DNA of 63,503 nt, filler included, from Patellaria atrata CBS 101060 (Eukaryota): NCBI GenBank assembly GCA_010093705.1. It is 5 parts of 4 records of this genome, joined end to end, with 100 filler letters (N's around TTAATTAATTAA, not from the genome) between each part and the next. Parts side by side here need not be neighbours in the genome. Positions count along the whole stretch, not along the records: positions 18,655 to 44,769 come from MU006129.1; 4 more parts are not named here. One strand, written 5' to 3'. Within the stretch, counting starts at the first letter, position 1; the number at the start of each line of letters is the position of its first letter. Of this stretch, positions 2,394-44,869 are shown one piece after another. The notes under the pieces are model-generated. The model did not search any database. It saw only the letters and a program-made list of their open reading frames with translations, and was not told where the DNA came from. Both the position numbers and the translations under genes were made by a program.

Positions 2394-2426
2394 CCTCAAA
2401 CTCGCTCTTCAGCAGCTGGAAGGGTG

Positions 2427-3613: not shown

Positions 3614-4171
3614 TTGTCTAAAGCGGGGGCCGATACGACTATATTACGTACTTATATATAGATGAAGCACAGTCCATTCCCCTAGTCCCATGTTCTTTGT
3701 AAAGAGAGTGCATGGCTTTGGTGTGAGCAGGCTTGAATATCTGATAGTGTGTAGTTGTGATACTGAAGCGACAAGAAGCGTTCACTGCCCGCCATAATAT
3801 TATGGGAAAAATTGAGCTTGAAGACTACGAAAAATAGAATAGTGATGGTATACCTAACTGTAACGAAACTAAGGTAAGGAAAATTTTATACTGAAGGGAA
3901 CTGAGGGATATATTTCAATAAGTTCCGTCCCAAGTCCACGAACTATCATAGGTATATCCTTCCGCATTACATCCTCCACTAGAGGATGACCCGCTTCGAT
4001 GTTCATTGCTTAGAATTATCTCTGGGCCGAGCAAGCCTGTAAGGGATATTAGGTGGTAATAATAACTGCTGAACCTTGGACAACATACCTTAGGGCGTCT
4101 GAGGTAGTTGCGATGATCGTGTATTATTATGAGACACGCCAACGTGTGACTTATTAACGATATCGTTGATA

Positions 4172-4625
4172 CTAATACCACCCGACGAGTGCTTCATCCA
4201 TGTTTCTATTTCTAGTAAGTAGAAGTACATGTAAGGAGGGGAGGTTACTACCATAGGTGGGCATTTCGGTTGTTGGGAGAGGAGTAGAAGCTGTCGAACT
4301 AGCTCCAGACGATACCTCCTTATCTGCATGCTGTGATCTCGGATTGCCGCTGACATGCAGAAGCGTCTCTGCAGCGATGACCCTCTTCAAAGTTGTGTCC
4401 AGAGCTTCAGTGACTGTGGTATTTGCTATAAGACTTTGCTAGTGCAAACGTAGACGATCGACTAGTGACTGGAAGGTAGCATCTACTTTTAACTCTATAG
4501 CGCGGGCTATTTTTAACGTCTTTGCTTGGTCTTGTCGTAGGTGCTCGATCTCCAATCGATCTTCCTTGATCTGGTTCTCAAGTCCACGAGCGTATAAGAT
4601 AATTTTGCAACGCTCACAACATTCC
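4172..4625 (-). pseudogene. RIP-damaged coiled-coil-like hypothetical gene
   Basis: The frame ECCERCKIILYARGLENQIKEDRLEIEHLRQDQAKTLKIARAIELKV...RLH*QSL... joins the 4172-4390 ORF across one TAG. Confidence 0.3.
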
Positions 4626-5594
4626 TAAAGTTGTTAGGAATTATTCTAACATTAGGTCTGGCACTGACTGGAACGTCGGAGCGGTTGTCAATAGCATGCT
4701 CCTCCATTATTATTCTAATTCCTAGCTTTAGGTCGGAGCTGGTTCTATAAGGCACTAAGGTGAGAGTAGGATAATTAGTGAAGATATAAGGAATCTTGTT
4801 ATTTGCTCAGGGGTAACTCGTAATACCCGGTTAAGCGTACTTTATATCAGAACTGTAGGTTTCATTTGTCGGGATACTGAAAACGACAAAACGTTTTCTT
4901 TTCAAACGAACGGCTGCAACGCCACTTGATCGCAGTGTGATAGTTCTACCTAGCTTAAGGGGAAGCCTACCGATAAGAGCCATTCCAAGGATATCATGAT
5001 TGTCAATACCTATAGAGAAAGATGTGCTCTAAATAAGGAGTAAAGCGCGCGTCTCCTAGGTAGCACTAGAAATTACGATGATCACTTTACGCTTATGGTA
5101 AAGCAGATCCCGACTATTGAATTGCGGCGTGCCGGTCCCCTTCGAGTAAGAGCTAATGTAGGGCAAGCCTATAGTATATAAGTATATAGTCTGCGCGTAG
5201 CCGGACTTGCCGAGTCGAAATGTCTGCCGTGAACGTTAGTTTGATGGAAGATAGACTGTCAATGGTGCCAGATGGATCCCGTGATTGATAATATATGTAG
5301 CCCTAACGCGGGGTCAACCAACCAGCGTCTCTAGGGTATAGTCTATCGCTTATCAGCGCCTGATTTTGCTAGGCAACCCTAGGCCAGAGCATCTTAGCCC
5401 TGTTTCTCCAAAGGTCTATGATTTTAGGCTTAACTAAAAATTCACGGGACTTATCGTCCATCGTCGATCCAAGATTCGCATGTTTATACAGCTTAAAAGT
5501 TTGCTCTATCTTATTATCGCACTTTTTTGATACATTGTTTTTAAGGAGTAAAATATAAGGTCCGTAATTCAAAAGTCTATGATAGCGCTATCAT

Positions 5595-7744: not shown

Positions 7745-8498
7745 ATGAGTACTTCTAACCGAAAGCAATGTGATGGGCGCAGAGAAGGGATACATAAAAA
7801 GCTGACGCAGTTGCAACAGCTGCACCCTCCTGAGGCTGAATTCAAAGCAATATTGATTCTATATGCTGCTAGTGTTTATCACATCTTCCGCTCCGCGGAA
7901 TTCGATAATTGGCCCCCTTCCATGAGTGAGCTTGTATGTCTCATCAGAGACTGCATTTACTGAAATTTTTCTAACACTTGTATAGAAAAATGAACCCAAC
8001 AAAATCGAAAAGACATCAGAAGACTATATGACCGTTAGAGAACGCAATCAGCTCGAAAGTGGCAACCCTATATGTGTTAAACGGCCGCTCGACGCCCTAG
8101 GGGAGGTGAACTCCTCAGTGAGATATCAAGATAGTAATCTGGATGAGGACATCAATTTGCATGCAGATACATTGGAATACGAGCTCTCACAATTACTCGA
8201 ACTAGAAACCGTTGATGATTCAGCCGAAGGCCGTCTCGGTAGTAGCGGTTTGCACTATAGCAATAAATCACTCGATTCTCCTATCTTCTCTCAACCAACC
8301 AAGGCTCCTTTGACATCAGCCAACAAACCACATAGTCCACCATCTGTAAAGCGCGCCAGAACCAATCCGTGGACCCGGACTCCGAGTCAAAGTCCGAATA
8401 GGTCCCAGTCGTCCTCTAGGACCCCATCAACCTTACCAACCTCTCAGAAAAGGTCTTTGTCCCATCGAGCCTGGGAGGGGGTTGCAAGGGACTCATAG
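7745..8498 (+). CDS. Small protein with MADS-box(SRF)-like N-terminus and Ser/Pro-rich tail; intron 7934-7985
   Basis: RREGIHKKLTQLQQL...YHIFRS...WPPS resembles a degenerate MADS box. The intron GTATGT...CTAAC...TAG joins the two ORFs in frame (about 233 aa). Confidence 0.55.
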
Positions 8499-8604
8499 TT
8501 CTTTAGAGTGCGCGTAAGCTTAGCTGGTGTGGTAACCTTGGGGCGGTTCAGAATTAATCATAGTATATGTTTGTTTATATTTGATCTTCTTCTGCGGCTT
8601 ATAG

Positions 8605-11600
8605 TCATATAGTATCATCAAAACGTCTCTTTTTAGTTAGGTCTGCTCTCGAATATCCACAATAAAGATATATTGTCTTACTCCGACCAATATACAGTAT
8701 ATGTTCTGGACCGGATGCAGCCGTGAGTGAGGAGATAGTGGGCGGATCGGTGAGCACTTGGAATCCATAACTGAATACACCGCACTCTTTAATCGCTGCT
8801 TTACATTTGTCGTAACCTTGAATGAAGTTTTCTAACTTCGAAATCGGAAAATAAAGCGGCTTCCTGTCATATGACTCTCCGGTATAGTATATGATATTGA
8901 CGGTGATTGTGTCCTCAAATGGACCGGTTTCATACGTTGGAAAATATTTCTCAAACTCTTCGTAACCTATTGTAGCAGTTCCGTCTTTCCGGCGCATAAG
9001 TTGGCCTTCAAGATTATGCCGTTCTATGGTCAGATCACTCAATTGCTTTTGGAGCGTCTCAGCTTGAATCTGTGTCACGCGCAATTGATCCTTTGTGGTA
9101 ATGAGCTCTCCGTCATTTATTCGCAATTGATCCTTTATGCTGATAAGCTCTGCATCTTTTGCTCGCAATTGATCTTTGATGCGGATAAACTCTACGGCTT
9201 CTGATGCCGATGCACTCAGTTTTTCTTTAAGGTGTCCAAGCTCCTGCTCCAAGTTCCTCTGGACCTCAGAAGCGATTTTCAAATCCTTTTCCTTTTCCTC
9301 TAATATGTCTGAAAGTCCCTTTTGTCGTTGCTGTGATTGCTCCAGTTCAGTTTGCATTACCTTGTTCTCAGCCTCCATACTCTTGATTCGCAAATCGAAA
9401 CTAATATTTTCTCTCTGAAGTTGATCGACGCGGTCTCGGGAATGGTCGGCCTCTGTATCCGATATAAAATCATCAAAGAGATAAGTTTCCGAAGCCACCG
9501 TCGCCGGGTTAATCTGCTCCAGCTCACTTCTTAATTGAGTGTTATCATTATGTAAGGATAGAAGCTCGGTTTCTTTACTTTTTAATTGCTTAGATTCGGT
9601 GTCGAGACGATTTTTCAACTCTATGTTCTTCTCGATCAGTTCCCCATTTTCATTCCGTAATGATTGAAGCTCGCTTGCTATATTTTCTGACTGCAAGGCT
9701 TCGGTTTTGATACGATTTTCCAACTCTATATTCTTCCGGATCAGCGCCCCGTTCTCATCCCGTAAGGATTGAAGCCTGCTTTCTATATCTTCTGATTGCA
9801 AAGCTTCGGTTTGGAAACGACTCTCTAACTCTGTGTTCTTCTCGATCAGCACCGTGTTCTCGTTTCGCAAGGCCTGAAGCTTGCTTCGAGTATCTTGCAA
9901 ATCCACGGTTTCGGTTTCAATACAACTCTCCAATTCCGATTTTTTCCTTACCAGTGCTGTGTTCTGGTTTCGTAAGAATTGAAGCTCGGTCTCTAGATTT
10001 GTCGATTATGTAGATTCCGTTTCTATGCGACTCACCAACTCTGATTTTTGTTGAAGTAGTGCCGCATTTTCCGCTCGTAGATTGTTGGATGCCATCTCGA
10101 GTTCCTATACCTTTATGAGCGCTTCTTGTAGCTGAGCTGCAGCTTTGGAGAGTCGCTCCGGCCAATTGTTATCAACGTTATGTCCTTCCGATATAGGCTC
10201 CGTATTGCGGCTAAAGTTTGACGGTGGATTGAGATCGTTTGAAATCACTAGGTGTTGGGAAATTGACTGGAACAATTAGTACAACTGAGAATCTATACGT
10301 AGTAGTCATACCGTACGGTATTTGGCCCGATTCTGAGAAAAGAGCGAAAGAAATCACATTTAACGAAATGTGAGGTTATATGCTGTCCGTTATTATCAGG
10401 TGACATACATAAATATGGGAGGAACATTGAGTCTAGATCTCGAGTATGGTCCTCCTCAAAGGGACGACCACAACGTCGCTCCAGCGGTAACGGACTACTG
10501 CTCGTAAATACTGGGGTAATACTTTGGCCAATCGGCCTCGATGCTTCGCGAAGGATAGTTGCGATTTTGTCTACACTTTGGATATCGTCACAGCCCGCTT
10601 GGACTTCCTGGAGGCATCGAAGTGCTTATTTACGGAATGGATCCTCTTCCTGCAGTTCTAGGGTTTTAGTGGTCCGAAAACCCAACCGAACGGCCAAGTC
10701 TCCGAGTCTATGCCATAGAACAAGATTCGGATGTTTCGGTGTCGGCTTTTCTCGCCCTTGTTCTTTTCTAGGAAGTGTGGATGTCATAGCTGGGTAATGA
10801 CGCATTGCAAATGCCCACAATTGGCCAAGAGCGTAAAGTTGGTCCTGCGCTCCTGATGCAGAAGATCGCAGATGGCCAAGTCCTTCAGCAAGCTCGATAT
10901 AATTCACAGGTGGTGGGAAGTAGTGCGCAAATAAGCCCTTTCGAATAGATTGCTTCTTCTCACCACCTAGTAGGGTTTTTAATATTGAGCAGCATGGTTC
11001 AAGCCAAGGAAGATTTTTGAAGAAAACGCGTAGACTCGGTACTAAACAAGGAAGGCTACATAGGTTCGTAAGGATTTCCCGCCTCATTCCGGGGTCTGTG
11101 ATGCTAGCGAAGATCTCACCAGAGGTCATCAGCTCTTCGACTCTATGGGCGTCGGACTGAGAGAAGCCTGGAGCAAGAAGCTCTAACTTTGAAACTGTAA
11201 CCATGTCGACTGCTGACTTTGGACCACGGGAGAGGATTCGCTCCCAAACAGCAGATATGTGTTTCAGTCCGTTCAATAACTCCTACAACATGTTAAAAAT
11301 GCATGAAGTGGTGAATATCTCGGGATTACTTTACCTCGTTACACTTTAAGCCAAGGAAACAGTGTAAGTTACCGAGCTTTATGGGCGGCCATTGTCCGGG
11401 CATGTCTAACAGTTTGTCAAACTCCGCTGCGAAGAGTTTATCCTTCAAAAGTTGCTTCAAATCCTTTTGTTTGCCAAGTGTCAGGCGAGCCCGCCAGCGA
11501 TTCTCGGCCTCTTCGTCTTTGTTTCGTCGGTATAACATGATCTTGTACCATTTTTCGCCATCTTTATAGTCTTGCTCGTTGATAGATTGCTCTATAAACT

Positions 11601-12103
11601 GCGTAGCTATGGATTCCGGTAGCCCTAGTGTGAATGAGTATCTCGAACGCAAAGTTGTATTAAGTAATTCTACACTTACCTTCTGCATACAATTTCACAG
11701 TCCACCACTTGTCATTCGCGTCTAAAAAAGCTTCGGCAGCTCGAACCCGGTGGAGTCCATTTAAGCACAACAAGCTTTCGATAGGCAATAGAGGTGGTAA
11801 GTCGGCCGATGCCTATTTGAGCTGCTCGATAGTAAAGCCCGATAATGACAAGGCACGACATAACTGGTCGTCTTTCACAAGGGCGACGATGAAGTTGTCC
11901 TCATCTGTTCGGCGACAACCCTCGAGCTCAAATGTTTTCCTTAGAATTTCTACTTTCTTTACGTCCTCTTGCCTATGATATATATTTACTGGAGTATCGT
12001 TAAATCGCAAGCAAGATAACCTGACACGAGCCAGCCCTCGAAAGTATCCGGTAGTTGTAGCGCTAAATGCACGCTCCGCTTCGGTCCCACAGCCCGGGGT
12101 CAT
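8605..12103 (-). pseudogene. DUF3723-family gene (Starship-associated) fused to a long repeat coiled coil; RIP-inactivated
   Basis: YFRGLARVRLSCLRF...EGCRRTDEDNFIVALV, CLNGLHRVRAA...WWTVKLY, KLELLAPGFS, VPSLRVFFKNL, LWAFAMRHYP, RRCGRP. Introns link the ORF pieces. In-frame stops at 11813, 10626 and two in the coiled coil all fit CAG/CAA>TAG/TAA. Confidence 0.85.
9545..10082 (-). repeat. Tandem 35-aa (105-bp) coiled-coil repeats, about 5 units
   Basis: Units such as LRNENTVLIEKNTELESRFQTEALQSEDIESRLQS and LRDENGALIRKNIELENRIKTEALQSENIASELQS. Confidence 0.8.
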
Positions 12104-12385
12104 GGCTGAGGAGACAACCTTCTGCTTCCTTATCTGAGCGTCGGGCCATGTTGAGAAGCTGCGATGGTGATAAATTAGACTGTGCTATCTTCATTCTCAG
12201 TATTACAGCGGCTAATAGGAGAGCTTTCGAGGAATTGATTTTCGGGGATCGTGTGTTCGTCTTAAAATGCGTGGTAGGCGCGGGCTAGTTCTAAGCGCCA
12301 ACACCTATCATATATTTTAGCAGCGCCTCTAGTGAAATGTAACTTACCAGACTATATCTTGGAATTTTGTCTGAAAGCTTCTACA

Positions 12386-13339
12386 ATGGAACCTAGCCCG
12401 TGGGTAGAGGTATCACACACTGGAAATAGCACTGTCTTGCGAGAATACAAAGTTGGTTTCGGCGGTATAGTTGAATCCTCTCAAACTACCCCCTGTATCG
12501 TTACCCTGATCGGTGGCCGAGCGAAGTCCGCCTTGTTGCGTCAGCTCCTCGGCAAGCCGAATTTGCCCACGCTTGTCGCGAGGCACAACCGGGTCTTCTT
12601 ATGGAGTGACCCAAAGACTCTGCGTAATCACTCGCCCACTGTCTTCATTGATAGTGAGCTTCATACACATAAGGTCGAGGATGTCCCTGAAGTGGGCGCA
12701 TGCACCAAAAGAGCGATCACCTGGTTCACGGATAGGTCCCAGCCGATGGGCAACAGATTCCATATTGAGGTCCTGTCTCCAGTGTCCGACGTCGTCTGTT
12801 ATTTCTCATCTGACCTCCGTGGCTTCGAGGGTATAGCTCAACTACTAGCGGAGCAAGCTTTACACGTCCCCACCCATGGCCTTCCCCGTTACGCTCTACC
12901 ACGTGTTGTCGTCGTTCTCGACACAAGCTCGGAGACCTTCGATCCAAGTGCGGCAGAGTCACGGCTCGTTCAGAAAATCACTTCCTTCATGCGCTCGGCG
13001 AGAGGTGAATCTTCAGAGGAGCAATTACTAGAATATCTGTATTCGAACTTTTTCTCCATAGGTATTCTCGGTTTGCGCACAGGGTGGAATAACGCAAGTC
13101 GAGCCAAAGTCTTCCGCAAAAGGATCCGCGCTGTAGTTCTAGGCGAGCACCAGAGCAGCGTTCGCCATCGGCATGGGTTCGCTTTCAACTGCGGGCATTT
13201 GAAAGCTATGTGCAGTCTTGCAATCCAGAGCTTCTGCGACTCCTCGCCATTCAACTTTATTGATGCTTCACGTCCCCTTGGTTACGACTCGCAGTTTTTC
13301 ACCTTCCACCTTCAGAACGTTCTGCAATGCATGCCCAGC
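12386..13339 (+). pseudogene. N-terminal part of a Starship-type patatin-like phospholipase (PLP) gene, interrupted by a Copia insertion
   Basis: The pattern FLWSD...PTVFIDS, LSPVSDVVCYFSSDL, LPRVVVV, FNCGHL...PFNFIDASR...HL resembles the N-terminus of PLPs found next to DUF3723. The gene is divergent from DUF3723 and its frame runs directly into the LTR at 13340. The patatin domain itself is not in the window. Confidence 0.65.
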
Positions 13340-13561: not shown

Positions 13562-13707
13562 TTTGCCCTAGGTTCTAAAATCAGTTTATATCGGATATTT
13601 GTCTATCTTTTAGATCTTTGGTGTATCAAGTTCACCTTCTTTTGATCCTATCTTTGCTCAAATATCCTCCCTTTTTATCTGGTTTTCTGATACCAACCGC
13701 TACCACA

Positions 13708-16700
13708 ATGTCGTCTTCAAATACTATCAAATCTACTGTTGTTCTCAACTCCTCGACGGATTGGAACTTGTGGATTGGCCTTATAAGGGGCAAAGCAGGC
13801 ACGGCCTGGAAGTATTGTGATCCAAATGATGCTTCACCCCCTGTTTTAAGCGCACCAGATCAACTGACAGATAAGGACCCTGCTGCTGTCGAAAATCATA
13901 GAATTCTGTATAGAGAATTCGAAAAGGCTCAGACCAAGTTAGATAACGTATCTGACTTTGTGTTCGAATCTGTGTCAACTCAACATCTTGTTTTTATCAT
14001 CAGGCTGAATACCCTTCACGAAAGGCTTGTTGAATTAAAGAAGAGACTTCAACCAGACGATCGAGCCACCTATTTGGATCTTCAGGCCCGGATCTACCGT
14101 CTGAGATCAACTATCAAAAAGAGCTCAGTTCTTGACTGGCTCCAACGTTTTGAAACCGTCTATACTGAGTGCAAAACGTCCAACCATCCCCTCTATCAGG
14201 GCCATATGCTCGAGTTCGAACTACTTGAAGGCCTCAAAAAGATAGATCCACAATGGGCAACTTCCTGTCAGAAAGATCTTAACAGACAGATTAGATCCAT
14301 ACCAAAACTGACCTCTCAACCTATTACTCAGGAAGTTACACCAACCAGAGACACCGTGAAATATGTCGACGACGTCTATGACCTTATCTCAGAATTCACT
14401 AGTTATTACCGATCCGTTCAGGCTGTTGGGGGTAACTCTGGATCAGGCTCATCAAGCACAGCTTTTGCCACCTTTCAGGGAGAATCAAATAACCCAACAG
14501 CTAACATTGACAAAAAGGAGAAATCTAAGAAATCTCACACTGGTGATAAGCGGGATCCACCTACATGCCTTTGCGGAGAAAAACACCTATTCTATACGTG
14601 TTCCTACATCAATCCAGCTGTCAAGAAGACTAATAGCTACTCTGATCAGACTCAACGAGAGGTCGAAGAGAAGTATCAGAAATCTAGCGATAGAGTTAAG
14701 TATACTATTGACAATATCCGGTCAATTTTCAAGGAATCCTCTCAGGGGTCAAAACAGCAAAACGACTCCAAATCCTCTGAAACCTCAAGCAAAAAGGTCA
14801 ATCTGATGGCCACGAGCCTCCCTAACGACTTGCCCTTCAAATTCTCAGCTAGTTTCTTGCTAGACGGTGGGTCTGATGTCCACGTTTGCAACAATCCGGA
14901 CATCTTTAAGATCGAACGAGTAGAACCAGGTTTAACGCTCGGAATGGGCTTTGGATCCGTTCCAGTTGAAGCCATCGGAAGCTTTGAAGTCCCTGTAGAT
15001 ACACCATACGGAAGGGACTATATCACTATGAACGACGCCTATTTATGCCCACAATTCAGAACATCTCTGATCTCACAGTCTCGAGCTCAAAAACGAGGAG
15101 TATTCCACCACGCACGGAAAGGGATCTTTGAGGATTTAGACGGAAACGAAATTTGTAAAATCTACCTGATTGACACCCTATACGTACTCCATCATGTCGA
15201 GCTTGACATCAATCAACAGCGCGTCGCTATGGTAACTCGCTCCGCTCAGCCGAGGCCGCCAATATCAGCCCCTGCTGAGAAATGGCATAAAATGCTCGCA
15301 CATCCAGGACCTGAGACCCTCGAACATCTCCAAGCGAACGTGACTGGAGCTGAAGTCTTTGGCAGAGGTCCTACCACAGTCGAATGCGAAACTTGCGCTT
15401 TGACTAAATCAACAGAGATTGTTTCACGAAGACCAAGGGCCACTTTACCCGCAACGAGACCCTTTGAACGAGTTGCTTTTGACCTTATTTACCTTAAAGG
15501 TGGTTATAACGGAAGCAAATACGTATCTCACTTCTATGATAGGGCCACTGGCTGGCACGAAGCCGTATCTCACACTCGGAAAAGCCAAGTTAGCCAGATT
15601 TGCAAATATTTCGTTGCTCGTATCAAAGCTCGATTTGACCATACAGTTGTCTATTTTGAACGTGACGGTGAGAGTGCTCTTACAGCAGAATTTTACGACC
15701 TACTCGCCTCAGAAGGTGGCATATCAGAACCATCAGCCCCTGGCACTCAGGCCCAAAACGGAGGTGCTGAAGCTTCTGGAAGGGTGTTGGTAGTAAAGGC
15801 TCGCTCTCTACGAATTGGTGCTAATTTACCCCACGATATCTGGATTGAACCAATCAATACAGCTGTATATCTAGCTAATAGGACTCCTCAGAAACGGCTC
15901 AACTGGAAAACACCGTACGAAATGGTCACTGGTAGGAAACCAGATCTTAGCCACCTGAAAGTATACGGTTGCAAAGCATATGTTTTGAAGAAAGATATAC
16001 CCAAACTTCAAAAACTCGATCCACGTGCCCATATTGGCTACCTAGTTGGATACGACTCATCAAATATCTTCAGAATCTGGGTTCCTAGTCGTAAACGCGT
16101 TTTCTCCTCAAGAGACGTTCGTTTTGATGAAAACGAGCTATATAGGCCTCAAGCCATCGACATTGGTCACATTTTGAAGGAATCCACTGAAGATATCATC
16201 GACATAATCGAGATACCAGCCAAACTCAGGGCTATGGCCTTGCAGGAAGATTTCCCAGCCATACTAGACAATGACGATGATTTTTCGGAATTAGGGGTTG
16301 CCCCTAAGCTTGTTCCTACTCTTAAGGATACAACCAAAAATGGTCCCATACCATCGGCCAATAGTAGCGCCATATCCGCTCAAAGGTCACCCAATCCTTA
16401 CCTACCTAGCCCGAGAGCTACACCAGATGGTGTTGACCCCCAGCAACAAGTAGCAACTCCTCTGGATCAGTATCATGACTTTTATGATGCCTTAGATTCG
16501 GCTCCTGAGGATCCGTCCCATCAGCTCACCCAGGAGCTTGCCCAAGATTTAGCAAGGGATACTCAAGATACTCAGGATTTGGCTCAAAACGAGCCCAGCC
16601 CCTCCACTTCGTCAAACACCACAGCTCATGCTAGAAGTTCACGAAACACGGCCCCACGAGCTAATTTAATCTCGTCTGACTTTTCAGAATCAAATATACT

Positions 16701-18438
16701 AACTTCTAAACGTCGCCGTGGCCGAACGGACCATAACGCGCTATTTACCTCCTTTTTAGCCTCCCAAAAACGTGAAATCCAACCAACGAACCGGCTACAT
16801 AGAAGTCAGCTTCCCCCAGCACCAGGTGGTTGGAAGCAAGCTCTTAATCACCCTTTTAAGCAAGATTGGCTAACAGCAGCCACTCGGGAGTATACTGAAC
16901 TACAGCGTCGTGGCACGTTTACTGTTGAACGGAGATCCGATCTGCTAGAAGGAACTCAGATAGTTCCCCTGACTTGGGTTTGGACATACAAATACGACGA
17001 GGAGGGATTTCTAACCAAGTTCAAAGCGCGACTTTGCGTCAGAGGCGATTTGCAATACACAGATCTGGATACCTATGCTGCTACTCTAGCTATACGTACT
17101 ATGCGAGCTATACTATCGATTGCAGCTGCTTTTGGCCTAATAGCTCACCATTTAGATGCTGTAAACGCCTTTGTAAACAGCCCACTTGACGAAGAGGTAT
17201 ACTGCATCCCACCTAACGGATTTACAACCCCTGGATCCGTTCTTCACCTCAAACGAGCCCTATATGGTCTTAAAAGATCTCCTCTACTTTGGTGGAAGAC
17301 ACTATCTAGGTCCCTTGAAGATCTGGGTCTATCTGAAGTATCAGGTGTCAATTGCCTGTATACGAATGACTGGCTAACCGTATTTTTCTATGTGGACGAT
17401 ATAGTTTTACTTTGCTCACCATACTATTCTGAAGAACTAAAAGAGTTCAAATCCAAACTAATGGCTCAGTATCCGATGAAAGATCTTGGAGATCTTCAGT
17501 ACTTCCTAGGTATCCGTATCGTACGTGACCTAGACGCACGTAAGCTATGGCTCTGTCAAGATGCCTATCTTGAGAATATCTTCTCAAAATTCAAACTGAT
17601 CGAATTCGACGGAAAAGTTCCACGAACACCGCTTCCATCTGGTGTTTTAGAACGGTCCACAACTCAGGCATCTCCTTCTCAAATTCGCCTTTACCAGCAG
17701 TTAATTGGCTCAATTATTTGGCCAGCCTCAACAACAAGACCTGACGTAGCTAAAGCAGCTTCAGAACTGTCGAAATACCTCACCAATCCGTCGGAACGAC
17801 ATATCAAAGCGGCAAAACAAGCTATTTGTTACCTATACCATACTAGATTTTGCTCCATTGGGTATAGCAACGAGCCACAGGATAGCACGATCTTCGTAGT
17901 TGCCTCAGATGCATCATTTGCTGATGATACTATAGATCGCAAAAGTAGTCAGGGCTATCTATTTTCGTTATTTGGTGGACCAATTGATTGGAAAGCTTCA
18001 AAGCAAGATACGGTCACCACGTCAAGCACGGAAGCTGAACTGCTATCGCTCTCTTTAACAGCTAGAGAGCTGATCTCGTGGAAACGCCTTTTTGATCATA
18101 TTGATTTCGATCCAGAACAACAGATCTCAATTTTCTGCGACAATCGCCAAACTATACGGCTTCTTGAGGCTGATACGCCTCAACTCACAACTAAACTTCG
18201 ACACGTAGATATTCACCAACACTGGCTACGTCAAGAGGTCCAAAACGGTACCATTGCCGTCAACTGGAAGCCTACAGCTGAGATGCCAGCTGACGGATTC
18301 ACCAAATTGTTACCTCCACAGAAGCATCAACACTTCCTCCTACAGTTAGGAATGACGGATATCCAGCATCACGTCGAACAGCTCGATTCAAGAAAGAAGA
18401 CCCAAAACGGTTATACAGCACGAGTAGTCCCTCTCTAG
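13708..18438 (+). CDS. Copia gag-pol polyprotein (Gag, protease, integrase, RT, RNase H)
   Basis: Uninterrupted ORF with CLCGEKH knuckle, LLDGGSDVHVCN protease, WHKMLAHP...CETC, integrase core, YVDD and RNase H. The first in-frame ATG is at 13708. Confidence 0.95.
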   Translation: MSSSNTIKSTVVLNSSTDWNLWIGLIRGKAGTAWKYCDPNDASPPVLSAPDQLTDKDPAAVENHRILYREFEKAQTKLDNVSDFVFESVSTQHLVFIIRLNTLHERLVELKKRLQPDDRATYLDLQARIYRLRSTIKKSSVLDWLQRFETVYTECKTSNHPLYQGHMLEFELLEGLKKIDPQWATSCQKDLNRQIRSIPKLTSQPITQEVTPTRDTVKYVDDVYDLISEFTSYYRSVQAVGGNSGSGSSSTAFATFQGESNNPTANIDKKEKSKKSHTGDKRDPPTCLCGEKHLFYTCSYINPAVKKTNSYSDQTQREVEEKYQKSSDRVKYTIDNIRSIFKESSQGSKQQNDSKSSETSSKKVNLMATSLPNDLPFKFSASFLLDGGSDVHVCNNPDIFKIERVEPGLTLGMGFGSVPVEAIGSFEVPVDTPYGRDYITMNDAYLCPQFRTSLISQSRAQKRGVFHHARKGIFEDLDGNEICKIYLIDTLYVLHHVELDINQQRVAMVTRSAQPRPPISAPAEKWHKMLAHPGPETLEHLQANVTGAEVFGRGPTTVECETCALTKSTEIVSRRPRATLPATRPFERVAFDLIYLKGGYNGSKYVSHFYDRATGWHEAVSHTRKSQVSQICKYFVARIKARFDHTVVYFERDGESALTAEFYDLLASEGGISEPSAPGTQAQNGGAEASGRVLVVKARSLRIGANLPHDIWIEPINTAVYLANRTPQKRLNWKTPYEMVTGRKPDLSHLKVYGCKAYVLKKDIPKLQKLDPRAHIGYLVGYDSSNIFRIWVPSRKRVFSSRDVRFDENELYRPQAIDIGHILKESTEDIIDIIEIPAKLRAMALQEDFPAILDNDDDFSELGVAPKLVPTLKDTTKNGPIPSANSSAISAQRSPNPYLPSPRATPDGVDPQQQVATPLDQYHDFYDALDSAPEDPSHQLTQELAQDLARDTQDTQDLAQNEPSPSTSSNTTAHARSSRNTAPRANLISSDFSESNILTSKRRRGRTDHNALFTSFLASQKREIQPTNRLHRSQLPPAPGGWKQALNHPFKQDWLTAATREYTELQRRGTFTVERRSDLLEGTQIVPLTWVWTYKYDEEGFLTKFKARLCVRGDLQYTDLDTYAATLAIRTMRAILSIAAAFGLIAHHLDAVNAFVNSPLDEEVYCIPPNGFTTPGSVLHLKRALYGLKRSPLLWWKTLSRSLEDLGLSEVSGVNCLYTNDWLTVFFYVDDIVLLCSPYYSEELKEFKSKLMAQYPMKDLGDLQYFLGIRIVRDLDARKLWLCQDAYLENIFSKFKLIEFDGKVPRTPLPSGVLERSTTQASPSQIRLYQQLIGSIIWPASTTRPDVAKAASELSKYLTNPSERHIKAAKQAICYLYHTRFCSIGYSNEPQDSTIFVVASDASFADDTIDRKSSQGYLFSLFGGPIDWKASKQDTVTTSSTEAELLSLSLTARELISWKRLFDHIDFDPEQQISIFCDNRQTIRLLEADTPQLTTKLRHVDIHQHWLRQEVQNGTIAVNWKPTAEMPADGFTKLLPPQKHQHFLLQLGMTDIQHHVEQLDSRKKTQNGYTARVVPL

Positions 18439-18554: not shown

Positions 18555-18654
18555 NNNNNNNNNNNNNNNNNNNNNNNNNNNNNNNNNNNNNNNNNNNNTT
18601 AATTAATTAANNNNNNNNNNNNNNNNNNNNNNNNNNNNNNNNNNNNNNNNNNNN
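18555..18654. other. Artificial contig spacer
   Basis: 44 N + TTAATTAATTAA (stop codons in all six frames) + 44 N. Confidence 0.97.
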
Positions 18655-18761
18655 CCTTTACTGATTTGCAGCAAGTTTTTTAAATCAGTAATACCCCTGC
18701 TCTTCAGGTGCGCACGGTCCACATTTAAATCAGTTATACATTTACTGATTTAAGCATTGCA
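18655..18761 (-). mobile_element. Terminus of a putative DNA element inserted into the DUF3505 gene
   Basis: Inverted repeats TTACTGATTT/AAATCAGTAA and TTAAATCAGT...ACTGATTTAA, ending TAAGCATTGCA|GTTAGGG. Same architecture as the terminus at 19715-19826. Confidence 0.55.
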
Positions 18762-19424
18762 GTTAGGGATAAACCTATTCTTATCCGGTTCCACGATCGA
18801 GTATAAATTCTTCTTTATCTTCTTTAACTAGCTAGATATATTGGCGAATATTTCTTCTAGTTATTAGCTTATCTTAACTTCCTCTTCTTATATATCTCTT
18901 CCTACTATATCTATCTTCTTCTTCTCCTCCTAACTATTAACCTTAAATAGCTTTCCTAGCTTACCGGCTCCTATAAACTTTTGGTAGTGTATACCTTAAA
19001 TCTATGACTTTTCTCTATCTAGCTATAGACCGTCAGCTAGTCGTCCTCTCTACTTGCTAACCTATCTATATTTCTTGCGATAGTGGCTCTTCATATTTCT
19101 TATATCCCTATTAATATATCTACACTCCTTTAGTCCCTCTATTATTGCTTTTACTGTATATCTGAGCCTATCCTTATAGATTGCTAATCCTAGGATCGGA
19201 TCTAAACCTAACACTGGCTAGACCACCTAATCTTCTGTCATCGCAAATCCTTTAATGCCGGCCGTAAACTGGACCATCTCTTTCCTACTTCTTGCGGTCA
19301 AGTGCGCATGCCTTGCTGCTAGATATGTACTACACTGCGTCAGTAAACAGCCAATCCGACACTCTCTACAGATTATAATGCCGTATCTTGATGCATAGTC
19401 GAAAAGCTGGTTAAACTGATCCAT
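18762..19424 (-). pseudogene. DUF3505/OrsD-like N-terminus (type usually found on fungal RecQ-helicase-associated genes); RIP-damaged and truncated
   Basis: YGIIICRECRIGC...HAHL...DPILGLAIY...KECRY...MKSHYRKKY...GIHYQKF...RFIPN| with many TAG/TAA stops. Recognised by eye. Confidence 0.65.
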
Positions 19425-19714
19425 AATGATGATAACTCTAACTGATTTTCTTGCTAACTGCTCCGTAGAGGCATAATCGCTAGGAGAGAATACTTCTAGA
19501 GAGGCTTACTCTCCCCCTAGACTAGGAGATGGAGGTCCTTAGCAGTGCGCACGGATGGAAATTTGCCTTATCCAAAGAATTCTAACCTGATATGTTAACA
19601 TGATAGTCTAGCATCAAAAAACTAGCTAATAAACGAATCTAACTTTATTAGAATATTCATCTAGGTTAATTGCACCCTTCTATCGGTTTGCATCGCAATA
19701 TATCTGAAGATTTT

Positions 19715-19820
19715 AACCTTAAAACACTTTTGAAAGTAAGAAAGTGTTTTAAGCCCCCGGTTTTCAGAATCTTGGCGCCAAAAAAAAGTGTTTTAGACCT
19801 TAAAACACTTAAGCATTATA
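19715..19820 (-). mobile_element. Hairpin-rich terminus of the DUF3505-carrying element
   Basis: Repeated TAAAACACTT/AAGTGTTTTA inverted pairs ending TAAGCATTATA|GTTAGGC, abutting a Copia integrase fragment. Confidence 0.6.
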
Positions 19821-20059
19821 GTTAGGCTACAATGGATGTGAGTTTTTGACCCATTTTTACGACAGATATTCGGGGTGGCACGAAGCCATAGCCCACCACT
19901 TGAGAGGCCAGACAGCCCAGATAGCTATGAACTTTATAGCACGTATTCGGGCCGTTTTCGGGCATGTTGTCGTCTACTTTGAGAGAGACGGAGAGACAGC
20001 TCTAGCTGGAGCCTTTGCTAAAAAGCTTCAGGCATCAGGCGGAGTAGCAGAGTCATCAG
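19821..20059 (+). mobile_element. Copia integrase fragment
   Basis: LGYNGCEFLTHFYDRYSGWHEA...VVYFERDGETAL is homologous to the integrase of the 13708 ORF (GYNGSKYVSHFYDRATGWHEA...VVYFERDGESAL). Confidence 0.9.
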
Positions 20060-20513
20060 TGTGAGATTGTGGATAACTGAATGTAGTCACTTGATTCTTC
20101 GTACAACTACGGATTCTATCTAGTGTTTATATAATGATACACAGCGAATCCGACCTCCTGTTGCTCTTGGTCGGTATTGAATCCGAAGCACAACTTTTCA
20201 TGGTCCTACTTGGCCCACCACGCGATAAAGTTCCTGTTTGTCTTCTCTGTTCCCGTCACTATACCAACTGGGTTCTAGAGAGAAATATTCGCATGTTCCC
20301 AGTCCCCGTTTTGCTAGTGCTCCCGGTTTCAATGGGGATAAAAGACTCGACAAGAGTGTTCTGGTTCTATTGCTAGGAACACCTTTTCGGATGAAGGGGA
20401 GAATAGATAGTAGTTTGGCCTAGTCACCTAGAGAACGCCTGCGAGGGATTTCTAATATACTTGCTTCAATATGGGCAAACTCAAACGTGACCACTGCGAT
20501 AACGAGTCTAACA
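20060..20513 (-). repeat. Probable solo Copia LTR (about 454 bp) without TSD
   Basis: The first ~77 bp (plus strand) match the LTR at 53270 (TGTGAGATTGTGG.TAACTGAATGTAGTC...ATAATGA). The putative other end is TCTAACA at 20507-20513. The flanks differ (ATCAG vs CCGTC). Confidence 0.6.
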
Positions 20514-22925
20514 CCGTCGGTAAAAGAAAAGGCGAGGAGCACATCGCGGTTGCATTGCGAGGGCAATTCTTTGCCGCAGAACAAGTGCTAGCTGTTGCCG
20601 TGCGAAAGCCTGTTGCTGTAAAATGGCACGTTGCTGGAGCCCGGTTTCCCACTCGTTCCACGTTAATGGAGACGGCTGAGGGGGCGGCTGTACTATATAA
20701 TTCCGGTTGATGATGGGTCGGTTGGCCTTTCTGTATGGAATTACGGAGATCTCGGTGAACTCCCAGCGTGTCTTAAGGTGGGGTTTAGACATGAGATAGA
20801 CCATATACTCGCCGTAGATGACGGCGACGTAGTACTCGGCCGTAGCCCTTCTGCGACTGTCTGCTTTGGGGATGAGAATACCCTCGATGCCGGCACGGGC
20901 GAGTCGCGCGCAGACCGATTTCTTCCAGTCGCTGTACGCATACGTCATCCTTAGATGGCCCATCTGCGTGAGCATTGTGGTAGTCGGAGTGCTGATCCGT
21001 GCCGGCCGCGACCCCATGCCCGAGACAAGGTACAGCCGGCCCGGCTTCTTCAAGCGTGTCTTCAGCGCATTATTCGAAAGACCAGAAAGGCGGAATTTCA
21101 TTTGTAGCTTGGTCCACCGCGCCTGCTTGACCTTTTGCGGTTTAGCACCCACCCAGGAGATCAACTTGTCCATCGGACGACGATAGTTCCAGTCTTTCAA
21201 CGGTACCACGCCGTAGTCATGATATTTGAACCTCTGTATAGCCCACCGGTCGAGCTGATAAGGGCCGGAGGTGCGCTGGCTGGGCCACTTATCCCTGACC
21301 GTCTGGGCGGCTGCTCCAATCGTCAGAATCCAGCGACTGGTAGGTGGCTTGAAAGTCGAGCCGGAATTGATCACGAAGACGCCGTCACCAAGCACATTCC
21401 AGCGACCCTGGATGCGATCCCACTGGATAAAGAGCACAAAGCGGCGGTCGCCGGTTGTTCTGCCGCCGATTGGGGTGAGATACGTCCCGACTTGGGCTTT
21501 GCCGACTCTGCCAACGTAGACGACCTGGACGTTGCTTGTTCCGGCTGTGAGTCCAGGTGCGTGATAATAGAGACGCCCACGGTTGGTCTTGAGTGATATC
21601 TTGGCAATGCCACGTCTGGAATTGATGATACGGAAGTTGGACCATGGCCCGAAGGAAAACATGCGGGCGTTGATGATATGCGGGTGCGAATGCGTTACAA
21701 AGAGCATGTCAAACCGATCGATGTAATCGTCAAACGCGTCGACATACCGGCCCACCCATCTAGAAGGGCCCGCATTTGAAGTATAAACCGGTTGGCCGTT
21801 GGCCAGGGTGTCCGGGCACCGAGGAAGAATGCGGGATATCGGGTCCCGGGGATACCTACTCCCACCAACGCCGTTGATAGTAAACCACGATGGTCCGATT
21901 TTGCTGATGGCTGCTGTCTTCCGTGCGAGATCGCGAAACAGGTCCTTATAGGTTCGCACATCCCGGAAAGGGTCGATTTGAAGGCCGAAGCAGAGCATGA
22001 CGCTGTAGACAATGTCGACTGGGTGCCCGGACGTGCGCAGAAACATGCTCCTCCATATTCCGGCCGCACTTATCAGCCGGTTCGGGTGTATGGCGGTACG
22101 GAGCGCATGTCTTGGGACGTACTTCCTGGTGGGCGCAGCATAGAGGCCATCCAGAACCACGACATTACTATAGGGTGCACTGAAGTTATTGTCAGCCATG
22201 TCAAGAAGGTCCCTTAGACGGATGAGTCTTTTGTTCGGCTCCCCCGTTACGATCATCAGCGGATACCGGTTGCCAGCTGTGTCCCGAACACTGGTGGAGC
22301 CCGGCGGACCTGGCCAGAGCACGTAGACCCAGGTCTGTCGCCAGTTGACGAAAGACTCCTGGAGGGTCCACGCTCTATCCATCCATCCAGTAGGGGTGCC
22401 GACCGACTGTACCCGCGGAATGCCTCCAATCATGACTACCACGGATGCCGCGTTTTCGTAGATATCCCGCATAATACAGATCTGAAATGGGACCTCAGAG
22501 CCGCTGGCGGCTTTCTGGTCTATGCAGAGGAAGTCGAGCCAGATCCAGCCGGCGCCGAGCTGCGCGGCCGCATTTGCAATTTGCACGAGACCTACCCAGC
22601 TGATATCCTTGTAGTATGGGGGACTTTTGATCTTGATCCTTAGTCTCCGAATCATCATTCCACCTGTATAAGCGGCGGAGTCGACCTCAGCGCCGTATCC
22701 CCAAACGTGGGAAATAGCGATATAGGGCGGACTAATGGCCTGCAGGTCGCTAGAGAGAGTTTTACTAGGGAACCTGATGGATTTCCATTCATAGAGGTTG
22801 ACCTTGGGGTTCGACCTCAGGAGGTCTGCAACTTTGAAAGCTCGGAAAGCACCGTCTGTACGTCCACTTGGATAGACCCAAGTCCGTGGTGGTGTCTCCG
22901 ACTGAGAAGCCACGAATCGGACCAT
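20508..22925 (-). CDS. HET-domain protein with a long unrecognised basic/aromatic C-terminal region (about 805 aa, no intron needed)
   Basis: HET motifs PYIAISHVWG, WIWLDFLCIDQ, QICIMRDIYENAASVVV, WMDRAWTLQE. ATG at 22925. Confidence 0.9.
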   Translation of the reverse strand: MVRFVASQSETPPRTWVYPSGRTDGAFRAFKVADLLRSNPKVNLYEWKSIRFPSKTLSSDLQAISPPYIAISHVWGYGAEVDSAAYTGGMMIRRLRIKIKSPPYYKDISWVGLVQIANAAAQLGAGWIWLDFLCIDQKAASGSEVPFQICIMRDIYENAASVVVMIGGIPRVQSVGTPTGWMDRAWTLQESFVNWRQTWVYVLWPGPPGSTSVRDTAGNRYPLMIVTGEPNKRLIRLRDLLDMADNNFSAPYSNVVVLDGLYAAPTRKYVPRHALRTAIHPNRLISAAGIWRSMFLRTSGHPVDIVYSVMLCFGLQIDPFRDVRTYKDLFRDLARKTAAISKIGPSWFTINGVGGSRYPRDPISRILPRCPDTLANGQPVYTSNAGPSRWVGRYVDAFDDYIDRFDMLFVTHSHPHIINARMFSFGPWSNFRIINSRRGIAKISLKTNRGRLYYHAPGLTAGTSNVQVVYVGRVGKAQVGTYLTPIGGRTTGDRRFVLFIQWDRIQGRWNVLGDGVFVINSGSTFKPPTSRWILTIGAAAQTVRDKWPSQRTSGPYQLDRWAIQRFKYHDYGVVPLKDWNYRRPMDKLISWVGAKPQKVKQARWTKLQMKFRLSGLSNNALKTRLKKPGRLYLVSGMGSRPARISTPTTTMLTQMGHLRMTYAYSDWKKSVCARLARAGIEGILIPKADSRRRATAEYYVAVIYGEYMVYLMSKPHLKTRWEFTEISVIPYRKANRPIINRNYIVQPPPQPSPLTWNEWETGLQQRAILQQQAFARQQLALVLRQRIALAMQPRCAPRLFFYRRC

Positions 22926-24147
22926 ACTTTCCAACGGTGTCTCACAGTTCGGTTCGATCTAATAGTCAAAAGCGATACGCAAAATAAAGACACGATTGTT
23001 GTGAGACGAGAAGGATTGTGTGAACCTGAGTCGCATTGAAAGAGATACGAATGGAAGCGAGAAACGGACGCTCGACACTCTACTAGAACAGTGGTGTTAC
23101 GGCCAGCAACAACAGCTTCGTGGAAGAAGTCAACGATGGGCTCGTGATGGGCAAAGCGGTGGGAACCAGCAGTGCAGTTATGTACGAGGAAAGTATCTGT
23201 CCTGGCGGAGCCTCCGTATTAGATTATGAAAGGAAGTAATCCCTTTGGTCAGATAAGGGATGGGGGAGCAGAGGGAGCATAACAGAAAACAGGGTTTATA
23301 AGGGAAGGGGTACCTAAGGATACTCTTTCTTCATGTATTTGGAAACCTCCTGGTGCTTATATTAGTTTAGATTTGATTTGAATCTTAATTTTGACTGAAA
23401 GTTTGAAGTCTTTCAAGTTGCTATGACCCAAAGTGCAAAGGTCACCACGAATCCCTATCACAAACCGAGCCTTTAAGGATGTAATGAGAAACCTTGCAGG
23501 AACTAGACTTATCCAATTCCGTCTTAGCGAGAATAGACTCCACTCCTAAACCCCTTTAGCGGGTGCATGGGTAGTTAGAGGGACGCAAGCCACCCCTACT
23601 TTAGCCCATCGGTGGCTGGCAGGGTTCAGAGGACGTTATTTGACCTCTCGGAAAGCATTTTGGAAATAATAACCGAAAACACCGAGGACAAGACTGAGGG
23701 AGAAAAGTTGTGGCATTTTTCTTCAGAATAACGCAAGCTGAACATCCCCTGTTTGCTGACCTTATCGGGTCGAGGATAACAGGCTTAGAACCCAAAAGAG
23801 GAAATCCCCGCATCGACGCTGCTCTGCAGTAATATTGCAGTCTAATGACGCCTATCACCTTCAAGTCCCTGTTGATGCAGATATATTGTGTGACCTTTTT
23901 TTCTTTTCCCTTTAAAGAAAAGGCAACCAACGGGAAGAGTGAAAGAATTGGGAGTATGCCGTATATAAAGCATGTTCGTCCAAGGCCCGCTCCGGTGAAT
24001 AGCCCTTGCGGAAATTTCTGTCAGCAACACCCGGATAAGCTGAGAGCTCGCTGCTGGTACCTCCTGGTTTAAGAGACTTGAGGACATACCTGGTGGGAAT
24101 CAAACCGTTTGTAATTTTTTTTCTTTTTTGATATTCGAACAGCCACA

Positions 24148-44769: not shown

Positions 44770-44869
44770 NNNNNNNNNNNNNNNNNNNNNNNNNNNNNNN
44801 NNNNNNNNNNNNNTTAATTAATTAANNNNNNNNNNNNNNNNNNNNNNNNNNNNNNNNNNNNNNNNNNNN
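44770..44869. other. Artificial contig spacer
   Basis: 44 N + TTAATTAATTAA + 44 N. Confidence 0.97.

Follow-up and report, generated by a model that had tools for sequence, protein, structure and literature searches.

The stretch of DNA considered here, 63,503 nucleotides from the fungus Patellaria atrata CBS 101060 (GenBank assembly GCA_010093705.1; hereafter the window), contains two closely spaced junctions at which short inverted repeats adjoin the hexamer GTTAGG (CCTAAC on the minus strand). Read on the minus strand, these junctions are the 5' boundaries of two nested telomere-linked helicase (TLH)-type elements, called A and B. A is joined to an OrsD/DUF3505 gene that belongs to B, and B is joined to the integrase of a Copia element (Table 1). 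At least five contigs, joined end to end, make up the window, a pseudomolecule in which neighbours across the contig spacers need not be linked in the genome. Because such a spacer occupies positions 18555-18654, terminus A stands at the very beginning of its contig.

Two junctions with a common hexamer

Junction A (TTAAGCATTGCA/GTTAGG, 18750-18767) and junction B (TTAAGCATTATA/GTTAGG, 19809-19826) have the general form TTAAGCATT(GC/AT)A followed by GTTAGG, and the pattern TTAAGCATTRYAGTTAGG matches both exactly on the plus strand. Over the whole window, these two matches compare with 0.02 expected, and none of 100 shuffles reached two; no further TTAAGCATT is present in the window. The common GTTAGG junction reported in the initial annotation is thus exact at both sites. 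The same annotation had described, at each terminus, a separate set of inverted repeats, unlike in sequence and alike in architecture, and this is also what is found. Two modules with arms of 10-13 nt stand ahead of each junction; the arm sequences differ between A and B (AAATCAGT-type against AAAACACTT-type), and the layout is identical. When folded as single-stranded DNA, the modules of A and B give z scores of -3.5 to -4.2, and none of 200 shuffles is equally stable on either strand.

Elements A and B and their targets

Inward from its end, element A consists of TGCAATGC, inverted repeat 1, a box (AAATGTGGACCGTGCGCAC...CAGGGG), and inverted repeat 2. This order of parts recurs in L001-L004, L017 and L003b, which are among the relatives described below. 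Positions 18655-22000 of the window were compared with five contigs of an independent public run (X1), which leave 20223-22000 uncovered. One X1 contig is 100% identical to the window over 18655-18767 (113 nt), extends 1279 nt further left, and stops exactly after GTTAGG. The sequence GTGCGCACGG is common to A (18708-18717) and B (19545-19554); it lies 44 nt from the end in A, inside the conserved box, and 266 nt from the end in B. Given this position in B, the two outer repeat modules of B may be a later addition.

Within element B, the minus-strand open reading frame (ORF) 19505..19227 belongs to the OrsD/DUF3505 family (Pfam PF12013, E 1.1e-7, 32.8 bits against a cut-off of 26.6), and the open part of the gene corresponds to the first 49 of the 114 positions of the OrsD model. 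The closest database protein is P0001, a hypothetical protein of P. atrata (487 aa; OrsD match E 1.7e-20), which is 95% identical over the open part and whose residues 1-222 align to 19424..18759 at 79% identity (tblastn). At 18762 the B frame stops in ...NRFIPN, whereas P0001 continues from ...NRFIPN into AWLDRTGW; the interruption is therefore a true one. The uninterrupted B gene is also present in X1, where contig 2 reads CCCTAAC/GCATGG..., translating to ..RFIPNAWLDRTGWAK. Thus the DUF3505 gene is indeed cut after ...RFIPN, as first annotated, since P0001 and contig 2 both read straight through, and contig 2 represents the empty site, hexamer included. Because this uninterrupted gene holds CCCTAAC/GCATGG, the hexamer at the A/B joint belonged to the target ahead of the arrival of A. 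A PN..W motif is common in the family alignment, so that the family's own gene often offers a site for such a joint. The window copy of B stops at codon 221 and so contains no TLH-domain or helicase part.

The window copy of B has also decayed. Among the 74 differences between the window and the five X1 contigs, 72 are A>G or T>C in the direction window to X1, a bias that points to decay by repeat-induced point mutation (RIP); 48 of the differences fall in contig 3, over B (19027-19826). The stops in 19226-18762 stem from C-to-T and G-to-A changes of this RIP-like kind. X1 holds a second, non-mutated copy of B, and B in the window is 94% identical to X1. This second copy runs through GTTAGG into unrelated DNA, TTTGGCAAAG....

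On the far side of junction B, the frame LGYNGCEF..., at 19822, had been annotated as Copia integrase, and it does align to the integrase of the window's intact Copia. Two other Copia copies of the window, both strongly diverged, read AAAGGTGGT and AAAGAAGCT at the position of the joint; Copia homology can therefore be traced only as far as GGC TAC AAT GG, which leaves out the GTTA at the B/Copia joint. A protein search for a closer Copia copy, in which B's empty site might be read, found none.

Two further candidates were rejected. A stretch at 18929-18946 that might be read as the B end in inverted form (83% complementary) is taken as chance, since it falls within the coding part that carries the RIP-like changes and mismatches the B end at positions other than transitions. 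A hAT-like reading of TAGGGATAAA at 18764 was dropped because that stretch is B's own coding sequence. Pfam detects no reverse transcriptase family in B's ORF, in P0001, or in the long relatives, although such a gene would be expected of telomere-targeted non-LTR or Penelope-like retroelements (MoTeR, FoTeR, PLE).

Relatives and the 5' boundary module

P0001 has 1039 representative relatives at E<=1e-3. The long members (about 1400-1740 aa) begin with OrsD, continue for about 900 aa without any family, and end with DEAD/Helicase_C and a faint RecQ_Zn_bind; among the 12 long members scanned, DEAD and Helicase_C are present in 10 and OrsD in 11. The loci of the relatives come from JGI metagenome contigs (33) and from prokaryote genome bins (5 more, evidently fungal); no relatives were found among viral contigs. 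The fungal TLH contigs L048-L052 are filed in bacterial metagenome-assembled genomes (Mucilaginibacter, Erythrobacter and others), which is likely binning contamination. Further copies of the family are thus available in both X1 and metagenome contigs, in keeping with the family of elements that had been proposed.

Many relatives contain the same module about 400-600 nt upstream of the start codon. Its order is the terminal 8-15 nt, inverted repeat 1, the box AAATGTG..CCGTGCG....CAGGGG, and inverted repeat 2. The 10-11-mers of the module are subfamily-specific, are confined to the 5' module, and occur in the order a, a', a', a; the boundary module of B contains the 10-mer TAAAACACTT and its complement at four places in this order. 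Of six modules from relatives, three fold better than all shuffles and three no better.

The starts of these elements are of two types. In type II, CCTAAC stands directly before T(G/A)(C/T)AATGC or ACCAATAGG, with the end motif T(G/A)(C/T)AATGCTTAA. CCTAAC is found at all five independent type II junctions, and the base that precedes it varies (C, G, A, T and A). This small sample is made up of both window termini (A, then B), the copy of B in X1, and the metagenome relatives L003 (at 195) and L017 (at 4857). The L003 and L017 proteins are 41-44% identical to P0001. The proposed constancy of GTTAGG across unrelated flanks therefore holds at 5/5 junctions, and the printed TLH boundary of Magnaporthe oryzae (M. 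oryzae) adds another case. In type I, the start reads (T/C)CTATC, then 4-5 nt, then ATGG (L002, L003a, L004, L007, L008, L009, L010, L014, L016 and L049). Four of these (L008, L009, L014 and L016) are copies that are 99-100% identical and have four different flanks. The starts of L024 and L025 are TATCCC. CCTAAC flanks none of the 11 starts with visible flanks in the type I clade and L024/L025.

When the starts are aligned on ATG(G/C), CCTAAC takes the place of TCTATC or CCTATC, inside the part common to sister copies. Because it aligns with a hexamer inside this shared part, CCTAAC behaves as a core that is carried by the element and matched in the target. In its behaviour the hexamer resembles a crossover core common to element and target, and not the pure target that the initial annotation had made of it. 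In a tree built on the first 300 residues, one clade (support 87/95) gathers the six rows whose start is of the CTATC type, L024 aside, together with three rows whose terminus is unseen; the type II rows lie outside this clade, and L024 and L019 are long branches. The grouping of the CTATC-type rows indicates that the hexamer changes while the family stays TLH-like.

Two relatives have unusual arrangements. In L020 (560-850), five tandem hairpin units of about 58 nt (ATTTCGGCATG...CATGCCGAAAT) lie upstream of a decayed TLH gene; they are an amplified boundary module and recall the repeat blocks of M. oryzae. One metagenome contig, L011, contains two tandem OrsD genes (480-5075 and 8178-12959), the first of which (1532 aa) has recombinase-like motifs (..GGQLPRVSEL.., ..HHK.., ..CRQ.., ..SGH........Y..) and no helicase family.

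Nested starts and the 3' side

Relatives can also carry one start inside or ahead of another. In L003, 62 nt of one start and 34 nt of a second are stacked ahead of the type II start, and in L010 the first ~62 nt are repeated in tandem at ACCCT/ATC. L002 has the start of one element within the 3' coding part of another copy, and L049 contains two tandem copies with a masked junction. All nested starts have one orientation, and the visible joints have 3-6 nt common to the target and the incoming start.

At the other end, the element of L009, which starts at 179, extends by way of a 1580-aa ORF and a G-rich tail to (TTAGGG)7 plus variants at the contig end. Its hexamer is TCTATC, yet it lies at a true telomere, with the gene reading towards it. 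L004 ends with two TTAGGG units followed by AT-rich DNA, and AT-rich DNA lies on both of its sides. The 2.5-kb tail of L049 has 1004 G and 218 C, with 10 TTAGGG and no CCCTAA. More generally, the TLH 3' tails of L049 (7215-9784), L001 (5900-6773) and L007 (5570-6500) have a strong strand bias: they are G-rich and C-poor or are satellites of A, G and T only, in which TTAGGG is scattered and CCCTAA absent. A second core could not be located on the 3' side of the type I relatives L001, L004, L007, L019 and L049, which have AT-rich or G-rich tails with scattered TTAGGG, and, where the 3' side of relatives is visible, it has no second copy of the 5' 10-11-mer motifs.

Fold of the TLH domain

About 300 residues before the helicase, all members contain four motifs: ..HMTGGxPxRGxEL.., ..YHK..GKxKVIHRYLPREVGEL.., ..WRH..A.YRRY.., and ..QTGHxxxxxGxIYGR... 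In 55 sequences, down to 21% identity, the residues R171 (54/54), E174 (54/54) and K206 (55/55) are invariant, and R331 (37/39), H375 (33/36) and Y384 (35/36) are nearly so. P0014, the closest long relative of P0001 and the B protein, has the Arg I, Lys and His/Tyr motifs; its Arg II is not picked out by the pattern.

The fold was tested on the domain of the relative L009, not on the truncated window copy. An AlphaFold2 model of 441 aa, built from a 55-row alignment, has a pLDDT of 82.2 and a pTM of 0.82; aa 115-517 of the L009 protein lie outside it. VIA-align, a comparison independent of Foldseek, was made against 48,161 PDB representatives, and the 28 chains that reach Z>=5 comprise only tyrosine recombinases, type IB topoisomerases and Ndc10. 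The top match is the archaeal Xer protein 4a8e (root-mean-square deviation 3.6 A over 176 residues; chain 99-279, the whole catalytic domain). It is followed by XerH (9.6), XerA (9.5), the Brujita integrase (9.3), Cre (8.8), XerD (8.2-8.6), IntI (2a3v, 7.8), type IB topoisomerases (6.2-7.8), Flp (6.7) and Ndc10 (5.3-5.6). Thus the tyrosine-recombinase fold, suggested at the outset as something to look for, is matched by the model at Z 11.1, against 4.5 for the first unrelated chain. Tyrosine recombinases nearly fill the top ranks of Foldseek (E 0.3-2.5), hhalign lines up all TLH motifs colinearly with Xer-type recombinases, with a score not above that of shuffles, and the ESM Atlas gives weak leads only (0.82-0.84; Phage_integrase, NDC10_II, DUF3435, ResT-TelK). 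From the PDB comparison, the TLH domain is predicted to have a tyrosine-recombinase-like fold, with catalytic-type R, K, R, H and Y residues that could make joints such as those in the window.

Other features of the window

An 816-aa open frame on the minus strand (22958..20508), beside the transposon pile-up, has a HET (heterokaryon incompatibility) domain (E 1e-10). The piece of a long terminal repeat (LTR) that follows the Copia fragment is also matched by X1 contigs 4 and 5. Two stretches, 45001-49000 and 62484-63503, are extremely AT-rich (GC 8-17% in 1-kb bins), and the last contig is nearly pure A/T. An Rfam scan yields a sub-threshold U5 match only (25 bits against a gathering score of 40).

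Table 1. Positions of boundary modules, joints, gene remnants and neighbouring repeats in the window
Feature	Position	Strand	Remarks
Element A, first 107 nt	18655..18761	-	5' boundary module of TLH-type element; ends at contig edge
A inverted-repeat arms	18658-18667/18682-18691 and 18725-18734/18744-18753		two modules ahead of junction
Hexamer CCTAAC (GTTAGG on +), A/B joint	18762..18767	-	codons (I)PN native to B gene
Element B, first 1059 nt	18762..19820	-	396-nt leader with boundary module, plus codons 1-221 of OrsD/DUF3505 gene
B gene remnant	18762..19424	-	open 19424-19227; many stops 19226-18762
B boundary module	19711..19820	-	TATAATGCTT; inverted repeat 1 (19786-19795/19801-19810); inverted repeat 2 (19718-19730/19741-19753)
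B inverted-repeat arms	19718-19730/19741-19753 and 19786-19795/19801-19810		two modules ahead of junction
Hexamer CCTAAC (GTTAGG on +), B/Copia joint	19821..19826	-	
Copia integrase fragment, B's target	19825..20058	+	aa 642-719 of the window's intact Copia, 54% identity, E 3e-24 (tblastn)
78-nt end piece of another LTR	20060..20137	+	95% to 53270-53347, 100% to 56715-56750; context, outside element
Intact Copia	13579-18438	+	1619-aa open frame; RVT_2, SH3_retrovirus; weak below-cutoff rve, Pol_BBD
Diverged or truncated Copia pieces	3-2375, 39902-38199, 56613-55207, 54474-53701		
Contig spacers N44-TTAATTAATTAA-N44	18555-18654, 44770-44869, 56615-56714, 62384-62483		

A model for the joints

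We propose the following origin of the two joints. An element begins with a hexamer core (CCTAAC, which is one C-strand telomere unit, or (T/C)CTATC in the sister clade), followed by 8-13 nt and two modules of subfamily-specific inverted 10-13-mers with a conserved box between them. Its gene begins about 400-600 nt in and codes for an OrsD double zinc finger at the N-terminus, the TLH domain, and a RecQ-like helicase. The recombinase domain would bind the inverted repeats, and strands would be exchanged at the hexamer with another site whose hexamer is identical or nearly so. Exchange of this kind has been proposed for Cryptons (PMC3212892) and shown for Starships (PMC10104507). The exchange might be the integration of a circle, or it might act at one site and transfer the entire cassette with its telomere to a different chromosome. 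One-site exchange would fit better, since only 5' ends are seen and the other end of the relatives is a telomere. Within the window, B would have joined the Copia integrase, and A would later have joined B's gene at the (I)PN codons; self-targeting may be built in, given that the (I)PN motif is common in the family.

On this model the window contains the upstream (5') boundaries of two nested TLH elements, joined at the hexamer core by Crypton- or Starship-like site-specific recombination, carried out by the element's own recombinase-fold protein. We regard this as an even call. The data show the boundary anatomy, the constant hexamer, the one hexamer already present in a target, and the fold; catalysis, the position of strand exchange, and the choice between one-ended and two-ended joining are inferences.

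A number of results weigh against site-specific joining by the TLH protein. At the DNA level, the 11 visible flanks of the type I clade and L024/L025 have nothing in common upstream of their own hexamer, which is compatible with a core internal to the element and likewise with ends that are simply fixed. For CCTAAC-type copies no 3' end is seen, leaving flanking core repeats unproven, and no circle, excision or new insertion was observed. At the protein level, Foldseek has no match at E<=0.001, the stretch of the model with H375 and Y384 has a pLDDT of only about 46-53, and the histidine that usually precedes Arg II by three residues is missing from the TLH domain. Pfam at E<=10 finds no recombinase family (Phage_integrase, DUF3435, NDC10_II) in any of 33 long members, nor a recombinase family in three pieces of the TLH domain. 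A profile search of PDB sequences with the TLH domain has no match, and none of the 92 matches of the TLH-domain profile in a large protein collection has a recombinase Pfam family. With hhalign, the comparison with XerD is not significant (E 0.11). That with 13 E. coli recombinases gives E 0.31 and a score of 15.2, against 11.3 +/- 2.3 for column shuffles, with 8 of 120 shuffles at or above it and a reversed template at 14.1.

Alternative explanations

The main rival is break-induced copying by the host. Host repair, and no enzyme of the element, would then make the joints: a broken chromosome end with a 3' strand that finishes at or close to CCTAAC could anneal to the CCTAAC of a TLH region's inner boundary on a different chromosome and copy this region as far as the telomere (microhomology-mediated break-induced replication, or "telomere capture"), and repeated breakage and capture would then stack 5' pieces in the order Copia, B, A. 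We consider this unlikely here, although much of the anatomy is as such repair would leave it. Only 5' parts are present, in one orientation, each cut by the next start (A, B and Copia in the window; L003, L010 and L002). Relatives and M. oryzae alike have the gene pointing at the telomere, and M. oryzae ends are described as often truncated and re-formed (PMC1635262). The microhomology was carried by the target, as X1 shows, and the break of the contig within A suits a position close to a repeated chromosome end. However, annealing should vary in register, and in 5/5 cases the joint falls exactly on the single innermost unit and keeps a constant spacing to the first inverted repeat. The stacked starts of 34 and 62 nt in L003 would need recurrent breaks inside the first 100 nt, and L004 has AT-rich DNA to its left and right and is followed by no more than two TTAGGG units. 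Host repair also leaves without a role a conserved recombinase-fold domain with near-invariant catalytic-type residues. Taken in full, the reading of the initial annotation would amount to a transposon, cut-and-paste or copy-and-paste, that targets any telomere-like motif and owes its telomere location to this preference. CCTAAC is a permuted telomere unit that flanks 5/5 type II termini, one target held the hexamer beforehand, and telomere arrays would offer one site per repeat. Such targeting is nevertheless improbable. The boundary CCTAAC printed for M. oryzae, the sole case with a description of both ends, is the reverse complement of the nearby terminal repeats (PMC1635262), and for this reason it is not the remnant of an insertion into that telomere. 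L009, with the hexamer TCTATC, still ends in (TTAGGG)7 plus variants, the CTATC-type clade (87/95) remains TLH-like despite its changed hexamer, and the window has no tandem TTAGGG or CCCTAA repeats. Because the hexamer is inverted in M. oryzae and TCTATC-type relatives are telomeric as well, motif preference is not supported as the cause of telomere linkage. Thus, of the nested mobile-element family first proposed, the two related nested elements, the further copies, the uninterrupted target, the constant hexamer and the fold are supported, and targeting as the cause of telomere linkage is not.

A Helitron-like rolling-circle element, with subterminal hairpins that are read by a Rep/helicase, no target duplication, and tandem 5' ends produced by read-through, would account for some of the same features. 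Hairpins near the end and multiple 5' termini occur in Fusarium elements of the Helitron2 type (PMC5148889, in the sections seen), and "Helitron-like" repeats are said to flank TLH genes of Botrytis (preprint 10.1101/2022.03.07.483234, likewise in part). But Pfam finds no Rep/HUH family in the 33 long members (with aa 115-517 of L009 outside the fold model), the helicase is DEAD/Helicase_C with faint RecQ_Zn_bind rather than Pif1-like, and the fold of the sole additional enzyme-like domain is that of a tyrosine recombinase. The terminal sequences, T(G/A)(C/T)AATGC..., also match none of the FoHeli ends given in the same Fusarium source (TCAG.../...ATTTT and TGCCT.../...CTCCTGT; PMC5148889), and we rate a Helitron as very improbable. 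Hardly credible is a chance resemblance or an assembly artefact at a contig edge. It is true that terminus A adjoins a contig spacer and that the stretch is found in one public run only, with 0.06 of sampled words. However, that independent run has A at 100% over 113 nt and B at 94%, the same architecture is present in metagenome contigs from other samples, and the pattern is 100 times over chance.

Significance

TLH genes are present at the chromosome ends of many fungi and one choanoflagellate. A recombinase fold, a sharp boundary module, and a hexamer common to element and target together make the telomere location of TLH helicases testable, as a matter of whether the protein can cut DNA at the hexamer and rejoin it, and whether it shifts chromosome ends. 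If site-specific joining is correct, the turnover of fungal subtelomeres would be driven in part by a selfish site-specific system, plant pathogens with effector and toxin genes near such ends included, and a member fused to a helicase would be added to the tyrosine-recombinase elements known from eukaryotes (Cryptons, DIRS, Starships). Failing that, the window is still a clean case of serial, microhomology-guided replacement of chromosome ends.

A broader proposal, which we put forward tentatively and hold to be possible though doubtful, is that TLH genes, for over 20 years puzzling subtelomeric "helicases", encode the transposase of mobile elements that form a class of their own, new in eukaryotes. 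In this class a tyrosine recombinase would be fused to a RecQ-like helicase, as a counterpart of the Rep-helicase of Helitrons, and would move a whole chromosome-end cassette, with its telomere, onto any site with the hexamer core; Y' of yeast and the tlh loci of fission yeast would descend from such elements or be related to them. Such an element would need one recombination site only, since its other end is the telomere. The core of the CCTAAC lineage would itself be a telomere unit, and elements of this kind could both scramble and heal chromosome ends.

Comparison with known systems

The Y' elements of yeast are subtelomeric, helicase-encoding units of 5-6 kb that can occur in tandem, lie adjacent to the telomere, and are amplified when telomerase fails. 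They resemble TLH elements as helicase-encoding subtelomeric units beside the telomere; we know of no recombinase-fold domain or defined boundary module in them. Tyrosine recombinases can act on single-strand hairpins, as IntI does at integron attC sites and XerCD does with the CTX phage. The combination of a tyrosine-recombinase fold with hairpin-capable sites is common to these systems and TLH elements by analogy only; the modules of 3/6 relatives fold no better than shuffles. By the same analogy, the helicase in the TLH protein could supply the single strand for recombination at hairpins.

The published architecture of TLH proteins, which the long relatives share, is two C2H2 motifs, a "TLH domain" and RecQ motifs (preprint 10.1101/2024.02.27.582403), and the function of TLH genes and of the TLH domain is stated to be unknown in the available text of that preprint and of PMC1635262. 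No link between TLH and a recombinase was found in the literature searched, outside of which lie subscription papers (e.g. Rehmeyer 2009, on the TLH domain); the word "recombinase" is absent from the two TLH preprints searched, 10.1101/2024.02.27.582403 and 10.1101/2022.03.07.483234.

The closest published case is M. oryzae, for which the passages of Rehmeyer et al. (2006, PMC1635262) that we draw on describe eleven TLH ends, with the 3' end of the gene facing the telomere. In these ends, 181 bp separate the TLH start codon from the end of a compound repeat block, which includes an imperfect palindrome of 23 bp, and the inner boundary (HAR-CDEF) begins with CCTAAC(C), which is the telomere unit in reverse complement. 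Judged by its printed sequence, this boundary is the same as that of type II here, in another class of fungi. The boundary hexamer is thus already in print and is not new here. The likeness includes the discrete CCTAAC inner boundary, palindrome-bearing repeats upstream, truncated and mutated copies, and a gene with two C2H2 motifs, a TLH domain and RecQ motifs (PMC1635262). However, the M. oryzae boundary is a tandem array of a 14-mer, whereas a single hexamer is followed here by two inverted-repeat modules, and those passages treat the region as a subtelomere domain rather than a mobile unit. They make no mention of copies nested within internal coding sequence, of an empty site, or of a TLH domain with an enzymatic fold (PMC1635262).

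Like TLH elements, Starships (Urquhart et al. 2023, PMC10104507) have a recombinase gene that leads the 5' end, and their termini contain target-homologous sequence (TTAC). In the same account, consulted in part, their Captain protein was recognised mainly by its AlphaFold similarity to Cre, has a variant residue at the histidine position, and occurs in RIP-hit copies. Unlike TLH elements, Starships are of giant size, carry cargo and have an inverted repeat at either end, with no fused helicase and no telomere link in that account, and Captain is a DUF3435 protein (PMC10104507); 0/33 long TLH members match DUF3435, although the TLH gene is 5'-leading as well.

Cryptons differ from TLH elements in carrying GCR1_C or nothing in place of OrsD, with a helicase unmentioned in the parts consulted of Kojima and Jurka (2011, PMC3212892). 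TLH proteins, for their part, have no Pfam-detectable similarity to them, the 3' core is not seen here, and the other TLH end may be the telomere. In both systems, however, a core of 4-6 bp at the end matches the target, as with CACCG against CAYCG in Cryptons (PMC3212892, PMC9977147), and a recombinase-fold protein is combined with the lack of terminal inverted repeats and of a true target duplication (PMC3212892; CryptonF-1_cRei, PMC9977147). According to the same sources, as far as they were available, Cryptons also cause translocations in which the core is present at each breakpoint (PMC3212892, PMC9977147).

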